A stretch of 64,000 nt of DNA from NCBI RefSeq assembly GCF_003334815.1, contig NZ_QOWO01000014.1; one strand, given 5' to 3'. The stretch comes from Escherichia coli (GTDB taxonomy: Bacteria > Pseudomonadota > Gammaproteobacteria > Enterobacterales > Enterobacteriaceae). Below are positions 17,201 through 23,200 of the stretch, one piece after another. Each line of letters starts with the position of its first letter. Within the stretch, counting starts at the first letter, position 1. Made by a program: the position numbers.

Positions 17201-20200
17201 CCAGCCAGTTATCTGCACACCGTTGCAGGCGAGATCAATTTCCATACTCTGCCCCGGCTGGCGACAGGCAATGACTCTGTCGGCAAGCTGCTGCATCTCC
17301 TGGCACTGTGTTTCCCAGAAAATTTCACCAAAAGCGCCATACGGTAAATCCCCTGCCGCTCGGAAGCGGCGGAACAAGCGTTCGGCATCATCCTGCTCAA
17401 CCAGTGCATTCAATAACTGCTGATTGATTTGATAACGGCTAAGTCCTTCCAGAATAAATGGCTCGGTGTCGGGGATTTCGCTGTCTTCAGTACGGAAGTT
17501 CACCTGCAAACGCATCTGGAAAAATGCCCGCACCGGATGTGCCCAGAATCGTTGTAGCGTTTCCAGCGGCACGGTTTCCGGTAAGGTAAACGGCAGCGGC
17601 TGAACAAATTCAGAATGTGCTTTACCAGCCTGGCTGGCCGCAGGTAGCCATTCACGAGCATAGCTTTGTCGTTCGCCTGGCTGGTAGTTTTGTGGATCAA
17701 ACGGCATCCGGGTATGGAGGCAAGTAAGATGCGCTTTTACCCTTGCCTCGCTTTCATCACAGTTGAGCGCTTCATCGCCCGGTAGATAATGACTTTGCCC
17801 GATGTAGTCGATCAGTTCCTGCACCAGTACCGACGGGAAACGCTCACTGTTATCCTGAATGGAACGACCGATATAGCTGATATAGAGTTTTTGCTGCGCG
17901 GAAATTAACGCTTCCAGGAACAGATAGCGGTCGTCATCGCGACGGCTACGGTCGCCACGCTTCGGTTTCTGGCTCATCAGGTCAAAGCCCAATGGCGCAA
18001 GCTGACGTGGATAAACGCCGTCGTTCATTCCCAGCAGGCAAACCACTTTGAACGGAATTGAACGCATTGGCATCAGAGTACAAATGTTAACCGGTCCGGC
18101 GAGAAAACGCTGGCTGATACGTTCTTGATCCAGACGCTGTGCCAGTTCATCACGCAATAGTGACAGCGGCACCGCGTCGCCATACTGCGCACCTAAACCT
18201 TCGGCGATAATCGCCTGCCATTGTTGTTCGATCAGCGTCATCGCCGCTTCGGTTTCCGCATCCGGCAGGAAGAAGGCGTTGAGCATATCGCGACAAACCG
18301 GCAACCACTCTTCCAGCGGACGCTCCTGTGCCAGCCCGCGACGCCAGATGTTTAGCTGCATTAGCAGTGAAGCCAGATGCCCCACCAGTTCTGCAATTAA
18401 GCCGCTCGATTCATCATAAGGTAGAACCGATTGCCACTCGCCCTGCGCGCTCTCCATCGCGTAGCCCAACAACATACGCGTCAGGCCAAATCGCCAGGTG
18501 TGTTGTCCGGTGGCGGGGAGTTCCAGCTCGCGAACGTTGTCGTCATCTATGCCCCAACGAATGCCGGATTCGTTGACCCACTGGCGTAAATAACGCAGCC
18601 CTTCTTCGGTGATGTCAAACCGCGCCGCCAGCACCGGCACATCCAGCAACGCCAGCACATCCTCTGACACAAAACGACTGTCAGGCAGTGATAACAGGCT
18701 GATAAACGCTTCCAGTACCGGATGTGACTGCCGCGCACGACGGTCGGAAATGGCGTAAGGTAGGTAACGATCCGCAGGTGCGCTACCAAACACAGCCTGA
18801 ATAAACGGACTGTAGCTGTCGATATCAGCCACCATCACGATGATGTCGCGCGGAGTAAGTGTCGGGTCTTCCTCCAGCATCGCCAGCAGGCGATCGTGTA
18901 AAACTTCAACTTCACGCTGCGGGCTATGGCAAACGTGGAAGGTGATACTGCTATCCAGTGGATCAAGCGGGCGTTTGTTATCGCTACGGGAAAACTCTTC
19001 GATGTTCACACCAGCAACGGCGCGGTTTTCCAGTTCCAGAATGTCAGACTGAATGTTATGCAGCAGGTTATCTGGCGTGACATCGACAAAGGCGTCCAGC
19101 TCCTGGCTGCTCTCCAGGTCAGAAAGGAGATAAATGTAGTCGCGCCCAAGCTTACCCCATGAAGCCAGCAGCGGGTTGCCGACATCCTGTTCACCATCGC
19201 TGTTAAAGAGCTGCCCGGCATTTTCGCTATCACGAAATAGCGGCAATTCGCGATCTTCAAAACTGTGTCGACGCTGACGGGTCAGCAGTTTCGCCAGATA
19301 AGCAGGATCTTTAATATCGCCCCAGTAATAACGGCAGGGGTTGGTAAACAGGAGATGGATTTCAATATGTTTACCCAGCGCCTGTAGCGCCTGGAGATAA
19401 ACAGGCGGTAACGCGGAAATACCGCATATAAAGACGCGCGAAGGTAACCCCGGCGGGCAGGTCGTCGCGGACTCCAGCGTTTCGATAAAGCGCTGATAGA
19501 GATTGGCGCGGTGCCAGCGCGGTTGCCCGAGTTGATGGGTATATTCCACCAGCGCCTTCCACAACGGGGCTTGCCAGGCCTGTGCTTCTCCCAGCCCTTC
19601 AACCAAATGTCCTGTTTCCCACTGTGCCAGCCAGTCCGGACGATAGACCAGATACTGGTCAAACAGGTCCGCCGCTTTTGAGGAAAGCTGGAACAGTTTT
19701 CGCTTGTCGCTATCGTCAGTCAGATAATGCCGCAACAGGGTAAAGTCTTCGCGCTCCAGCAATTGCGGCAGCAGAGTCATCAGTTTCCAGCTCATGCTCT
19801 GTTTGTTAAAGGCGCTCTCTTTGGGGATTTCCGGTAACACCCGGACGAACATATCCCAGATAAAGCTCGCTGGCAGCGGAAAATCAATGTTTGCCGCAAT
19901 ACCAAACTTTTGCGACAGGGTCATTTGCAGCCACTGTGCCATACCGGTACTTTGCACCAGAATCATCTCTGGTTCGAAAGGATCGTCCAGCCGTTCGCGT
20001 TCGACAATAAACTCCATCAACGCTTCCAGCACGTCCAGACGATTGGAATGGTAGACCCTTAACATAGCGGCTCCTGACTACTGACGATTCGGGCAATGCA
20101 GGCGGGTCATCTCGCCTTCTCTGCCCCCGGGTGAAACTAGCGTAACGCTGATGCTGACACATCCCGCCTGCGATGTCTGCATTCGGTTGACCTGCCAGTT

Positions 20201-23200
20201 GGCAGGTGGCGAAATCGCGCGCAGTTGCGTTTGCTGCCAGCCATGCCGCCAGAGCTGTTGGTACTGGTTTCTGCTGGCAAGACTGTTCATTAATGTTCGC
20301 TGGAAACCCGATAACGCAGTGACAATCATCACCATCAACACCATCGCCAACATTACCTCCGGCAGGCTAAAGCCTTGTTGATTCTTCAGGGAAGCTGACA
20401 TAACGCCCTCTCTTTCAGCGGACAAAAATCGCTCCAGCCGCGTGGCGAAAAAACAATGTTTCCATCAATGACTTCGCCTGTTCGCCACAACGAAACGCCT
20501 TCATAACCGGCAATCAATAAGGCTTCATTATCTGCCAGTAAACGCAAACAAACCTGGGCATCGGTTTCAGCGTACTGCGAGCACTGAACTGCTGGCTGCG
20601 TCTGCCAGGAGTGCATTTTTCCCCACGCCAGCGCCGACTGAACGATGGCCTGGCGGCGCAATGACTGACTTTCCATGCTCACGCGAGAGGCAAAACTGCG
20701 ATCCTGTTGGCTCATTCCTTGTAATAGCAAACTACCCAAAACCAGCAGCATCAGGACCAGAGCCAGTGACGAAACACCCTTTTCGCGGTTCACAGGTTGA
20801 ATCCTGTCACGCTATAGCTGGCATTCACCACGGTTTGCGGTTCAGACTTACTGGCAGCACGCATATTAACCGTCAACACCGGCGAGAAGCCGCTGACATC
20901 CTGACGTACGACCTGAAAAGTGTCGATAATGATGGCATCCGGATTAGTGACTTTATCCCAGCCCTTACCTTCACAGGATGTCGCACCGCGTAGCGTTTCC
21001 AGCACATGCTCCTTCAGACGAAATCCAATCTGGTCGGACTCTTTTACCGGTTCGCGATCCCAGATACCGTTACTGTTCGCATCCCACTGCACAATGACAC
21101 AGTCACCCTGTCCGACAATTTCCAGCCCTTCGCCGGTACAGATGCCATGACAATAACCCGCCCTCTGGAGATGCTTCGCGACGGTAAATACCCGCAGCCA
21201 GATTTCATCTTCCAGCGCCAGCTTACGGGTGCTCGTTAAACTTTCACGCTGTAACGCAGGCAGAAAGCGTGCCGCCCCCAGCAACAATACGCTACTGATC
21301 GCCATAGCAATCAACACTTCCAGCAGAGAAAAACCTTGCTCTTTTACAGGCATCCTTCTGTTTCTCCTTGCTGACAAAGCCGGAGTCTTCCCCACGGCGA
21401 AACCACCAGCCACCACTCGCCCGTTGAGTTTTTGAAGCGAATATGCCCGGCCCATGCGGTATTGCGCAGGCCAAAGAAAGCAAGCGAAGGTGTCAGGTCG
21501 CTCATTTCGACTTCGGGCCAGCGTGGCACAAAGACCAATGGTGAACTGCCATGACAGGTATTGGCCCCAGCAGCGGAACTCACAAGGCACCATAACGTCC
21601 CCTCCCTGATAACGCTGATACTGTGGTCGCGGTTATGCCAGTTGGCATCTTCACGTAAATAGAGCAAATAGTCCCGCGCCTGGCTGGCGGTTTGCCATAG
21701 CCGTTGCGACTGCTGCCAGTATTGCCAGCCATAGAGTCCACTTGCGCTTAGCATGACCAAAATCAGCATCGCGACCAGCGTTTCAATCAGCGTATAACCA
21801 CGTTGTGTTTTCATGCCGGCAGTATGGAGCGAGGAGAAAAAAAGACGAGGGCCAGTTTCTATTTCTTCGGCGCATCTTCCGGACTATTTACGCCGTTGCA
21901 GGACGTTGCAAAATTTCGGGAAGGCGTCTCGAAGAATTTAACGGAGGGTAAAAAAACCGACGCACACTGGCGTCGGCTCTGGCAGGATGTTTCGTAATTA
22001 GATAGCCACCGGCGCTTTAATGCCCGGATGCGGATCGTAGCCTTCAATCTCAAAGTCTTCGAAACGGTAGTCGAAGATGGATTCGGGTTTACGTTTGATA
22101 ATCAACTTCGGCAGCGGACGCGGTTCGCGGCTTAATTGCAGATGAGTTTGATCCATATGGTTGCTGTACAGATGCGTGTCGCCACCGGTCCAGACAAAAT
22201 CACCCACTTCCAGATCGCACTGCTGCGCCATCATATGCACCAATAACGCGTAGCTGGCAATGTTGAACGGCAGGCCGAGGAAGACGTCACAGGAGCGCTG
22301 ATAAAGCTGGCAAGAGAGTTTGCCGTCTGCCACATAGAACTGGAAGAATGCATGGCACGGTGCCAGCGCCATTTTATCCAGTTCGCCTACGTTCCACGCT
22401 GAAACAATAATGCGGCGCGAATCCGGGTCGTTTTTCAGCTGGTTCAGTACCGTAGTGATCTGGTCAATATGACGACCATCTGGCGTTGGCCAGGCGCGCC
22501 ACTGTTTACCATACACTGGCCCGAGGTCGCCGTTTTCATCGGCCCATTCGTCCCAGATGGTGACATTGTTTTCGTGTAGATAAGCAATGTTAGTGTCGCC
22601 CTGCAGAAACCACAGCAGTTCATGGATGATGGAACGCAGGTGGCAACGTTTAGTTGTCACCAGCGGGAATCCATCTTGCAGGTTAAAACGCATCTGATGA
22701 CCAAAAATGGAAAGCGTTCCGGTTCCGGTACGGTCGTTTTTCTGTGTGCCTTCGTCGAGCACTTTTTGCATCAGTTCTAAATACTGTTTCATGGTTCCTC
22801 AGGAAACGTGTTGCTGTGGGCTGCGACGATATGCCCAGACCATCATGATCACACCCGCGACAATCATCGGGATGGAAAGAATTTGCCCCATGCTGATGTA
22901 CTGCACCCAGGCACCGGTAAACTGCGCGTCGGGCTGGCGGAAAAACTCAACAATGATGCGAAACGCGCCGTAACCAATCAGGAACAAACCTGAGACAGCT
23001 CCCATTGGGCGTGGTTTACGAATATACAGGTTGAGGATAATAAACAGCACCACACCTTCCAGCAGCAGCTCGTAAAGCTGTGATGGGTGGCGCGGCAGCA
23101 CACCGTAAGTGTCGAAAATGGATTGCCACTGCGGGTTGGTTTGCAGCAGCAAAATATCTTCTGTACGGGAGCCAGGGAACAGCATGGCAAACGGGAAGTT

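Follow-up and report, generated by a model that had tools for sequence, protein, structure and literature searches.

The window analyzed here, which is the whole 64-kb stretch (64,000 nucleotides, nt) of the Escherichia coli contig NZ_QOWO01000014.1 on whose numbering all coordinates are given, harbors the ppdA-ppdB-ygdB-ppdC operon, whose four products are very probably the core minor pilins of the chromosomal type IVa pilus/DNA-uptake system in which PpdD is the major pilin. The operon has already been described in the literature, as have its synteny with recC, its regulation by Sxy, and its priming role, and it is a textbook feature that is universal in E. coli, with little discovery value. 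The modest additions of this analysis are cross-genus support for the overlapping gene starts, examples of mis-called starts, a conserved candidate promoter element, and computed support for the DUF2509 protein YgdB as a GspK/PilX-like minor pilin devoid of Glu5. Gene structure, motifs, overlaps, the YgdB fold, synteny, and purifying selection were computed, while priming and Sxy induction were taken from the literature, and translational coupling, co-transcription with recC, and the identity of the promoter element are inferences.

Identity and Distribution of the Operon

All four proteins exceeded the curated cut-offs of the corresponding NCBIfam equivalogs over essentially their full length. 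PpdA scored 249.6 bits against NF007800, PpdB 326.3 bits against NF007848 (residues 1-187), and PpdC 217.3 bits against NF007660 (residues 1-107 of 107), and YgdB was above the curated cut-off of NF008569 over residues 1-135 of 135. In Pfam, the N_methyl domain was recovered in PpdA, PpdB, and PpdC with E-values ranging from 5e-7 to 1e-8, together with T2SSppdC in PpdC and DUF2509 in YgdB. A search of PHROGs with the four gene products returned no match, and therefore the genes were not considered to be phage-derived.

The window was 99.99% identical to E. coli K-12 MG1655 over 8.5 kb, and in that genome (NC_000913.3, b2823-b2826) the genes have lengths of 324, 408, 564, and 471 nt, with identical starts, stops, and overlaps, which also equal those of the RefSeq annotation of a 100%-identical strain. 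The initial annotation had described a tightly packed block with overlapping stops and starts at 20078-21814, lying between thyA and recC, and this span was found to run exactly from the ppdC stop to the ppdA start, with thyA upstream and recC downstream (Table 1). It had also named the curated starts as the point on which the overlaps would stand or fall, and the K-12 starts keep all three of them. The locus was detected by megablast in 5,426 of 5,426 complete E. coli genomes, with 95-100% identity and nearly always in single copy. A base-by-base comparison with seven other E. coli strains showed all four open reading frames (ORFs) intact in each of them, with unchanged start and stop codons, and the RefSeq records listed for E. 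coli carry the four genes annotated as intact.

Prepilin Motifs and the Pilin-Like Nature of YgdB

The PROSITE pattern PS00409 matched RGYTLIE in PpdA, QGFSLLE in PpdB, and QGFSLPE in PpdC, which places the cleavage position at RG↓YTLIE, QG↓FSLLE, and QG↓FSLPE, respectively. When all six frames of the window were scanned, exactly these three matches were obtained, 4-9 residues from the curated starts (match positions at residues 5, 6, and 9); that all of them fall in ppd genes is far beyond chance. The scores of the three proteins against TIGR02532 were also above the 16.3-bit cut-off. PpdA, PpdB, and PpdC carry the class III signal peptide of the type IV pilin/pseudopilin superfamily, and the prepilin-type N-termini first ascribed to the three ppd products were recovered in each of them by both PS00409 and N_methyl. 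The narrower motif G-F/M-S/T-L-x-E, which had been proposed as a check, was present in PpdB and PpdC, but not in PpdA, whose Tyr at +1 fits PS00409 and lies outside that pattern. When the PDB was searched by sequence with the four proteins, no relatives were revealed, save a marginal match of PpdB to Thermus TTHA1219 (E = 0.035).

YgdB matched neither PS00409 nor the Pfam N_methyl domain, and it lacks Glu at +5. Its family is narrow, since only 117 related clusters were found among the 1.84 billion cluster representatives searched. An alignment of 58 near-full-length members showed at least 90% conservation of the leader glycine (G6), which was followed by ~20 hydrophobic residues, while W63, C82, D122, C124, P125, and C132 were invariant and C71 nearly so; the N-terminal MNRExG was conserved family-wide. 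Many relatives read G↓FS(T/L)(I/L), and the +5 position was never Glu in the sequences shown. The four conserved cysteines suggest that two disulfides may be formed in the exported domain. The AlphaFold2 model (predicted local distance difference test, pLDDT, 94.1; predicted template modeling score, pTM, 0.78) presented a 55-residue N-terminal helix (residues 6-60) followed by a five-stranded sheet, and the modeled protein has the lollipop shape of pilins, with the predicted long N-terminal helix placed on an antiparallel beta-sheet.

A Foldseek search with the YgdB model against the PDB gave nothing significant, and the nearest structural matches were the pilin domains of GspI/GspK-type minor pseudopilins. 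The absence of Glu5 in one minor subunit is a known hallmark of GspK-type proteins. Since YgdB keeps the Gly and lacks Glu+5, which is the GspK-type pattern, it would be an atypical member of the group rather than a non-pilin, and sequence and model together indicate that it is best regarded as a fourth pilin-type product, Glu5-less and GspK/PilX-like. Because YgdB itself appears to be pilin-like, the operon would encode four pilin-type products; the earlier count of three described PpdA, PpdB, and PpdC correctly, but fell short as a total. The published view likewise takes YgdB as the fourth minor pilin (bioRxiv 10.1101/856302).

Overlapping Genes and Their Start Sites

The ORF list and the raw sequence placed all four genes in the same direction, on the minus strand. 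The overlap between ppdA and ppdB comprises 10 nt (ATGCCTGTAA, 21344-21353), with the ppdB ATG lying within the last 10 nt of ppdA. That between ppdB and ygdB comprises 4 nt, and the GTGA at 20790-20793 (minus strand), initially given as an example of overlap, indeed fuses the GTG start of ygdB with the TGA stop of ppdB. Finally, ygdB and ppdC share 16 nt (20386-20401), the ppdC ATG being placed 16 nt inside ygdB. The lengths at all three junctions (10, 4, and 16 nt) equal 3n+1. Downstream, the Shine-Dalgarno (SD) sequence of recC, AGGAG, straddles the ppdC stop codon, and a scan of the 20066-20077 spacer found no terminator-like site, for which there is no room.

Table 1. Coordinates of the operon, its adjoining genes, and the features of its upstream spacer.
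Feature	Position	Strand	Description
ppdA	21344-21814	-	156 amino acids (aa); ATG start, TAA stop; RefSeq b2826
ppdB	20790-21353	-	187 aa; ATG start, TGA stop; RefSeq b2825
ygdB	20386-20793	-	135 aa; GTG start, TGA stop; DUF2509, pilin-like
ppdC	20078-20401	-	107 aa; ATG start, TAG stop; RefSeq b2823
ppdC-recC spacer	20066-20077	-	12 nt from the ppdC stop to the recC ATG; junction TAGTCAGGAGCCGCTATG
recC (exonuclease V gamma subunit)	16697-20065	-	Downstream neighbor, kept in relatives
thyA	21998-22792		183 nt upstream of ppdA
Hairpin and U7 tract	21950-21980	-	Directly after thyA; RNA fold -16.6 kcal/mol, z-score -2.9
Conserved block TTTTGCAACGTCCTGCAACGGC	21892-21913	-	Centered ~88 nt upstream of the ppdA ATG; candidate CRP-S/promoter element

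The anti-SD duplex energies were -8.5 kcal/mol for ppdB, -4.1 for ygdB, -8.3 for ppdC, -6.6 for recC, and -1.7 for ppdA, relative to a background mean of -2.4. The SD was strong for the curated starts of ppdB, which is preceded by AAGGAG, and ppdC, and moderate for ygdB. These starts are found within the end of the upstream gene, with the SD inside that gene, and the 10-, 4-, and 16-nt overlaps combined with internal SD sequences suggest translational coupling, which may favor matched amounts of the four subunits.

The start calls in this block had been described as non-trivial, which proved to be the case. The longest ORFs in the window exceeded the curated genes, reaching 267 aa for ppdB and 115 aa for ppdC, and 121-aa YgdB calls beginning at Met15 were found in public databases. 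In Citrobacter rodentium, an automated caller produced a 178-aa PpdB from a TTG located inside the prepilin motif, and in L011, which together with L012 and L013 (the latter from GCA_016306625.1) made up the three relatives with 24-30% YgdB identity, the automated PpdA start was called inside the hydrophobic helix. Variation within E. coli did not serve as a test of start sites, with divergence too low and the alternative frames remaining open. In L012 and L013, no alternative start codon was found upstream of the motif-proximal starts of ppdB and ygdB, as was also the case for ppdC in L012, and ygdB starts with ATG at the homologous position in all three relatives. Comparative sequence evidence of this kind decides in favor of the curated overlapping starts.

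Three other starts were rejected. The long ppdB (267 aa, ATG at 21593) presented the strongest SD-like sequence of all candidate starts (GGGAGGGG, -11.6 kcal/mol), placed 6 nt before this ATG. It would extend the ppdB frame by 80 codons over ppdA (21593-21354, minus strand), within a stretch of 93 open codons in total that was uninterrupted in C. rodentium and in each of the eight E. coli strains compared. However, the extension closed after 5-11 codons in L011-L013, its translation, when E. coli and Citrobacter were compared by eye, appeared far less conserved than that of the PpdA frame (69% identity), and the prepilin motif would end up buried 80 residues from the N-terminus; the segment is probably not coding. 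The long ppdC (TTG at 20425, 115 aa) was ruled out by the end-to-end NCBIfam alignment over residues 1-107 and by L012, which has no upstream alternative start, and the short ygdB (Met15, 121 aa) by the NCBIfam alignment over residues 1-135 and by the conserved MNRExG. For annotation purposes, the longest-ORF rule and automated callers misplace starts in overlapping pilin genes, in which the prepilin motif and cross-genus comparison pin them down.

Conservation, Synteny, and Selection

In C. rodentium, the genes were arranged as ptsP-lgt-thyA-ppdA-ppdB-ygdB-ppdC-recC-ptrA, with identical overlaps of 10, 4, and 16 nt, and the order ppdA-ppdB-ygdB-ppdC followed by recC-ptrA was also observed in the three more distant relatives. 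One of these three shares the 10/4/16-nt overlaps, and another, L013, presents 4-nt overlaps and an 8-nt overlap between ppdC and recC; the 10-nt overlap between ppdA and ppdB is present in L012. The four genes are clustered, co-oriented, and conserved in order, as in a core minor-pilin set, and the characterization of the locus as a known conserved arrangement was borne out both by the gene order kept in relatives and by its presence in every complete E. coli genome searched.

The ratio of nonsynonymous to synonymous substitution rates (dN/dS) relative to C. rodentium was 0.13-0.20 for ppdA, ppdB, and ppdC, whereas that of thyA and recC was 0.03-0.04; for ygdB it was not computable, since dS was saturated. 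The pilin genes are therefore under purifying selection and evolve several-fold faster than their neighbors, and such faster evolution would be expected of surface-exposed subunits.

A divergent form of the locus was observed in E. coli UTAK-10 (NZ_CP168987.1, 1044-2200; L006), in which a 21-nt tandem duplication comprised exactly the ppdA/ppdB overlap and ribosome-binding site, so that the two genes are separated. The same locus carries a 47-nt duplication that frameshifts the 3′ end of ppdB and lacks 126 nt upstream of ppdA; its thyA is partial and its recC frameshifted. This form may be either a natural mutant or an assembly artifact.

Transcription and Regulation of the Operon

Citrobacter and L012 share the hairpin and T-tract found directly after thyA (Table 1). 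This hairpin, which was absent from the output of the consensus terminator scan, is likely an intrinsic terminator separating thyA from the ppdA transcription unit. Given this conserved terminator-like structure, the four genes are probably transcribed from a promoter of their own, located downstream of it. The gene recC, 12 nt after ppdC, is probably co-transcribed with them. Scans of the coding strand for sigma-70 promoters and terminators gave nothing meaningful, with counts at or below the shuffle expectation.

Besides the terminator, the block TTTTGCAACGTCCTGCAACGGC was the only well-conserved island in the thyA-ppdA spacer among E. coli, C. rodentium, and L012, and it occurs once in the window. 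Apart from one CRP-S-like half-site (TGCAA), this block resembles a direct repeat of TGCAAC with 10-base-pair (bp) spacing, and Escherichia, Citrobacter, and one further relative have in common a conserved non-palindromic TTTGCAAC-N4-TGCAA(C), a direct repeat whose units are one helical turn apart. The segment is a candidate for either a degenerate CRP-S (Sxy-dependent CRP) site or a promoter element. At the corresponding place in the ppdA upstream spacer of the more distant L013, a near-canonical palindromic CRP-S site was found, TGCGT-N6-TCGCA (9/10), in TTTTGCGTGTCGCTTCGCAAAT. The best match of the scan for canonical CRP-S/CRP-N sites in the thyA-ppdA spacer of the window (7/10) was discarded as a probable coincidence, given its location in the hairpin that follows thyA.

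In PMC12616744, Sinha et al. 2009 and Jaskolska and Gerdes 2015 are cited as having reported that Sxy plus cAMP-CRP induces the operon in E. coli. The same paper describes the operon as Sxy-regulated, with ppdA as the most induced gene (PMC12616744), and Sxy was shown to induce ppdD and the hof genes as well (PMC1635313). One might speculate, with small expectation of being right, that in enterics the regulation of the operon, and via the 12-nt junction that of recC as well, was rewired to another regulator or to a CRP/Sxy binding mode other than the textbook CRP-S. If this were true, the expression of a RecBCD subunit would be tied to the DNA-uptake program in an unrecognized way.

Two further observations concern this spacer. 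In some RefSeq E. coli records (e.g., O111:H11 strain 88-19539), a 57-aa antisense 'hypothetical protein' (WP_001303639.1) is annotated at the equivalent of 21824-21997 (plus strand), where it spans the thyA terminator and the candidate promoter; it is probably a spurious call. In L013, the ppdA upstream spacer (3520-3801) contains a tandem repeat of ATTCAGTACCAA-like units.

Function, Related Systems, and Alternative Explanations

As minor pilins of a type IVa pilus, each of the four products would be inserted in the inner membrane via its short basic leader and hydrophobic helix, and a prepilin peptidase whose gene lies elsewhere (GspO/PppA) would cleave the leader immediately after the conserved glycine. 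The four proteins may then form a small tip complex that primes the polymerization of PpdD by an assembly machinery also encoded elsewhere (HofB/HofC and HofMNOPQ), in which YgdB is taken as the member without Glu+5, comparable to GspK/PilX. Following the literature, the promoter would be silent in laboratory culture and switched on by Sxy and cAMP-CRP. The overlaps and internal SD sequences would lead to coupled translation and to matched amounts of the four subunits, and recC, 12 nt further on, would be read from the same transcript.

Haemophilus influenzae likewise has a set of four small genes of pilin type, comNOPQ (HI0938-HI0941), which follow the same order and immediately precede a co-oriented recC, and both sets are reported to be regulated by Sxy/CRP-S, with the first gene (comN = ppdA) being the most induced (PMC12616744). 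However, the Haemophilus genes are needed for DNA uptake and transformation, with an in-frame comN deletion abolishing uptake (PMC12616744), whereas E. coli has no established natural induction or transformation phenotype (PMC3330819). The two sets were compared in gene order, position, and regulation. More recently, PpdA/ComN was proposed as a DNA receptor (PMC12616744).

The minor subunits GspH-GspI-GspJ-GspK (PulHIJK, XcpUVWX) resemble the E. coli set: there are four of them, they bear prepilin leaders, one (GspK) is devoid of Glu+5, and they constitute a fibre-priming tip complex. The YgdB model is structurally nearest to the pilin domains of GspI and GspK, and the E. coli set can replace PulHIJK, with PpdAB-YgdB-PpdC acting as primers of PulG assembly when pulHIJK is mutated (PMC5131608). 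These last two points, along with the Pfam name of the PpdC domain ('Type II secretion prepilin peptidase dependent protein C') and the weak NCBIfam matches to GspH, GspJ, and GspI, would also suit four type II secretion minor pseudopilins that serve the E. coli Gsp secreton instead of a type IV pilus, an assignment that was judged very improbable. The matches in question were far below the curated cut-offs and covered the N-terminal segment only, with PpdA scoring 18.7 bits against GspH (cut-off 80), and PpdB 20.8 against GspJ (64.85) and 16.3 against GspI (44.35); none of the GspH/I/J equivalog cut-offs (TIGR01708, TIGR01707, TIGR01711) was reached by PpdA or PpdB. YgdB comprises 135 aa, in contrast with ~260-280 residues in solved GspK chains, and lacks the inserted domain of GspK, and the E. 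coli operon is found outside any assembly operon. Type II secretion operons also include their own gspH-I-J-K. The operon, on the other hand, shares synteny with the comNOPQ genes of Haemophilus, of which comN is required for DNA uptake, and is reported to be Sxy-regulated (PMC12616744), as are ppdD and the hof genes (PMC1635313), and it supplied the minor pilins when the type IV pilus of E. coli was reconstituted with hofBC, hofMNOPQ, and gspO (bioRxiv 10.1101/856302). The term pseudopilin, under which the operon was first described, holds in that its products can substitute for PulHIJK, but the literature places them among the type IV pilus minor pilins and in the competence regulon (PMC5131608, PMC12616744).

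Two other minor-pilin sets are set apart by their gene content. Compared with the core minor-pilin set FimU-PilV-PilW-PilX(-PilY1-PilE) of Pseudomonas aeruginosa, the E. coli cluster has neither a gene for a large adhesin of the PilY1 type nor PilE. The ComGD-ComGE-ComGF-ComGG genes of Bacillus/Streptococcus differ in that they share an operon with their own ATPase and platform genes, and all profile scores of the E. coli proteins against this set were far below the curated cut-offs.

Several observations weigh against the operon encoding the minor pilins of the chromosomal type IVa pilus. Piliation and natural transformation are unseen in wild-type E. coli K-12 (PMC3330819). At the protein level, a one-to-one assignment of the Ppd proteins to GspH/I/J/K would depend on weak, mostly N-terminal profile matches, and a 125-aa YgdB variant with a frameshifted C-terminus is frequent in public protein collections (clusters of 463 and 131 member sequences). 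Regarding expression, ppdA has no recognizable SD at 21815-21836 (minus strand), unlike ppdB, ppdC, and recC, and no coding-strand promoter emerged from the sigma-70 consensus scan. No canonical CRP-S site was found upstream of ppdA, nor any match with one mismatch or fewer near this gene, and TTTTGCAACGTCCTGCAACGGC agrees with the CRP-S core (TGCGA-N6-TCGCA) at 5/10 positions, of which only the left half-site TGCAA is recognizable. The absence of an SD in front of ppdA matches the fact that engineers replaced the ppdA ribosome-binding site for better translation (bioRxiv 10.1101/856302).

The 237-aa YgdB-PpdC fusions are also present in public protein collections. Single-base indels close to a T6 run and within the 16-nt overlap, at the 3′ end of ygdB (~20386-20450), could account for both these fusions and the 125-aa variant, and the frameshifted YgdB entries may be either real alleles or sequencing errors.

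It could be argued from such entries, which are common in databases, that the operon is a cryptic relic, maintained mainly for the transcription or translation signals that it provides to the essential-pathway gene recC, without its own pilus function in present-day E. coli. The absence of an SD in ppdA, the distance of only 12 nt to recC, and the substitutions within E. coli by codon position, which amounted to 9/9/16 in ygdB and 5/3/5 in ppdC and showed little third-position bias, point in the same direction, as does the report that K-12 and ECOR strains produced no PpdD pilin without artificial Sxy induction and displayed no natural transformation in those tests (PMC3330819). Nevertheless, such a relic was considered highly unlikely, given that the four ORFs are intact in the seven other E. 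coli strains and in the listed RefSeq records, that the locus is universal in the species, and that the dN/dS values relative to Citrobacter denote purifying selection on ppdA, ppdB, and ppdC. In addition, the motifs, cysteines, and gene order are kept down to 24-30% identity, and the proteins are functional when expressed (PMC5131608, bioRxiv 10.1101/856302). The four genes are better understood as the minor-pilin operon of the PpdD pilus.

Genomic Neighborhood

The context of the operon was taken from the RefSeq annotation of a colinear record over window positions 121-62034, complemented with the ORFs up to the window end. The genes run from ygdI, csdAE, mltA, amiC, argA, recD, recB, ptrA, and recC, through the four ppd/ygdB genes, to thyA, lgt, ptsP, rppH, and mutH, and beyond mutH to araE, kduDI, and the yqe/yge genes, which are followed by a degraded ETT2 type III secretion cluster. 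The initial statement that no secretin, ATPase, or platform genes are adjacent to the operon was found to apply to the annotation and ORFs of the whole window, in which no ATPase, platform, secretin, alignment complex, or prepilin peptidase of type IV pilus or type II secretion systems was present. In E. coli, hofB, hofC, and ppdD, as well as hofMNOPQ and gspO, are found elsewhere on the chromosome (bioRxiv 10.1101/856302).

The only secretion genes in the window were those of the degraded ETT2 cluster, ~30 kb from the operon. This remnant (~53000-62500) includes PrgH/EprH, EscJ, SctI, a needle protein, EscR/S/T/U, and YscQ, and in the near-identical RefSeq record several of its genes bear annotated frameshifts or internal stops.

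The closest RefSeq strain, 300709, is colinear with the window and otherwise 99.9% identical to it. Two insertions present in 300709 are absent from the window, one of the IS3 family (~33890, between aas and galR) and the other an IS1A (~52920). Between mltA and amiC, the window has a single tRNA-Met (CAT) gene at 5244-5320 (plus strand), whereas in 300709 this gene occurs three times in tandem; at this site, the window is shorter by 220 nt.

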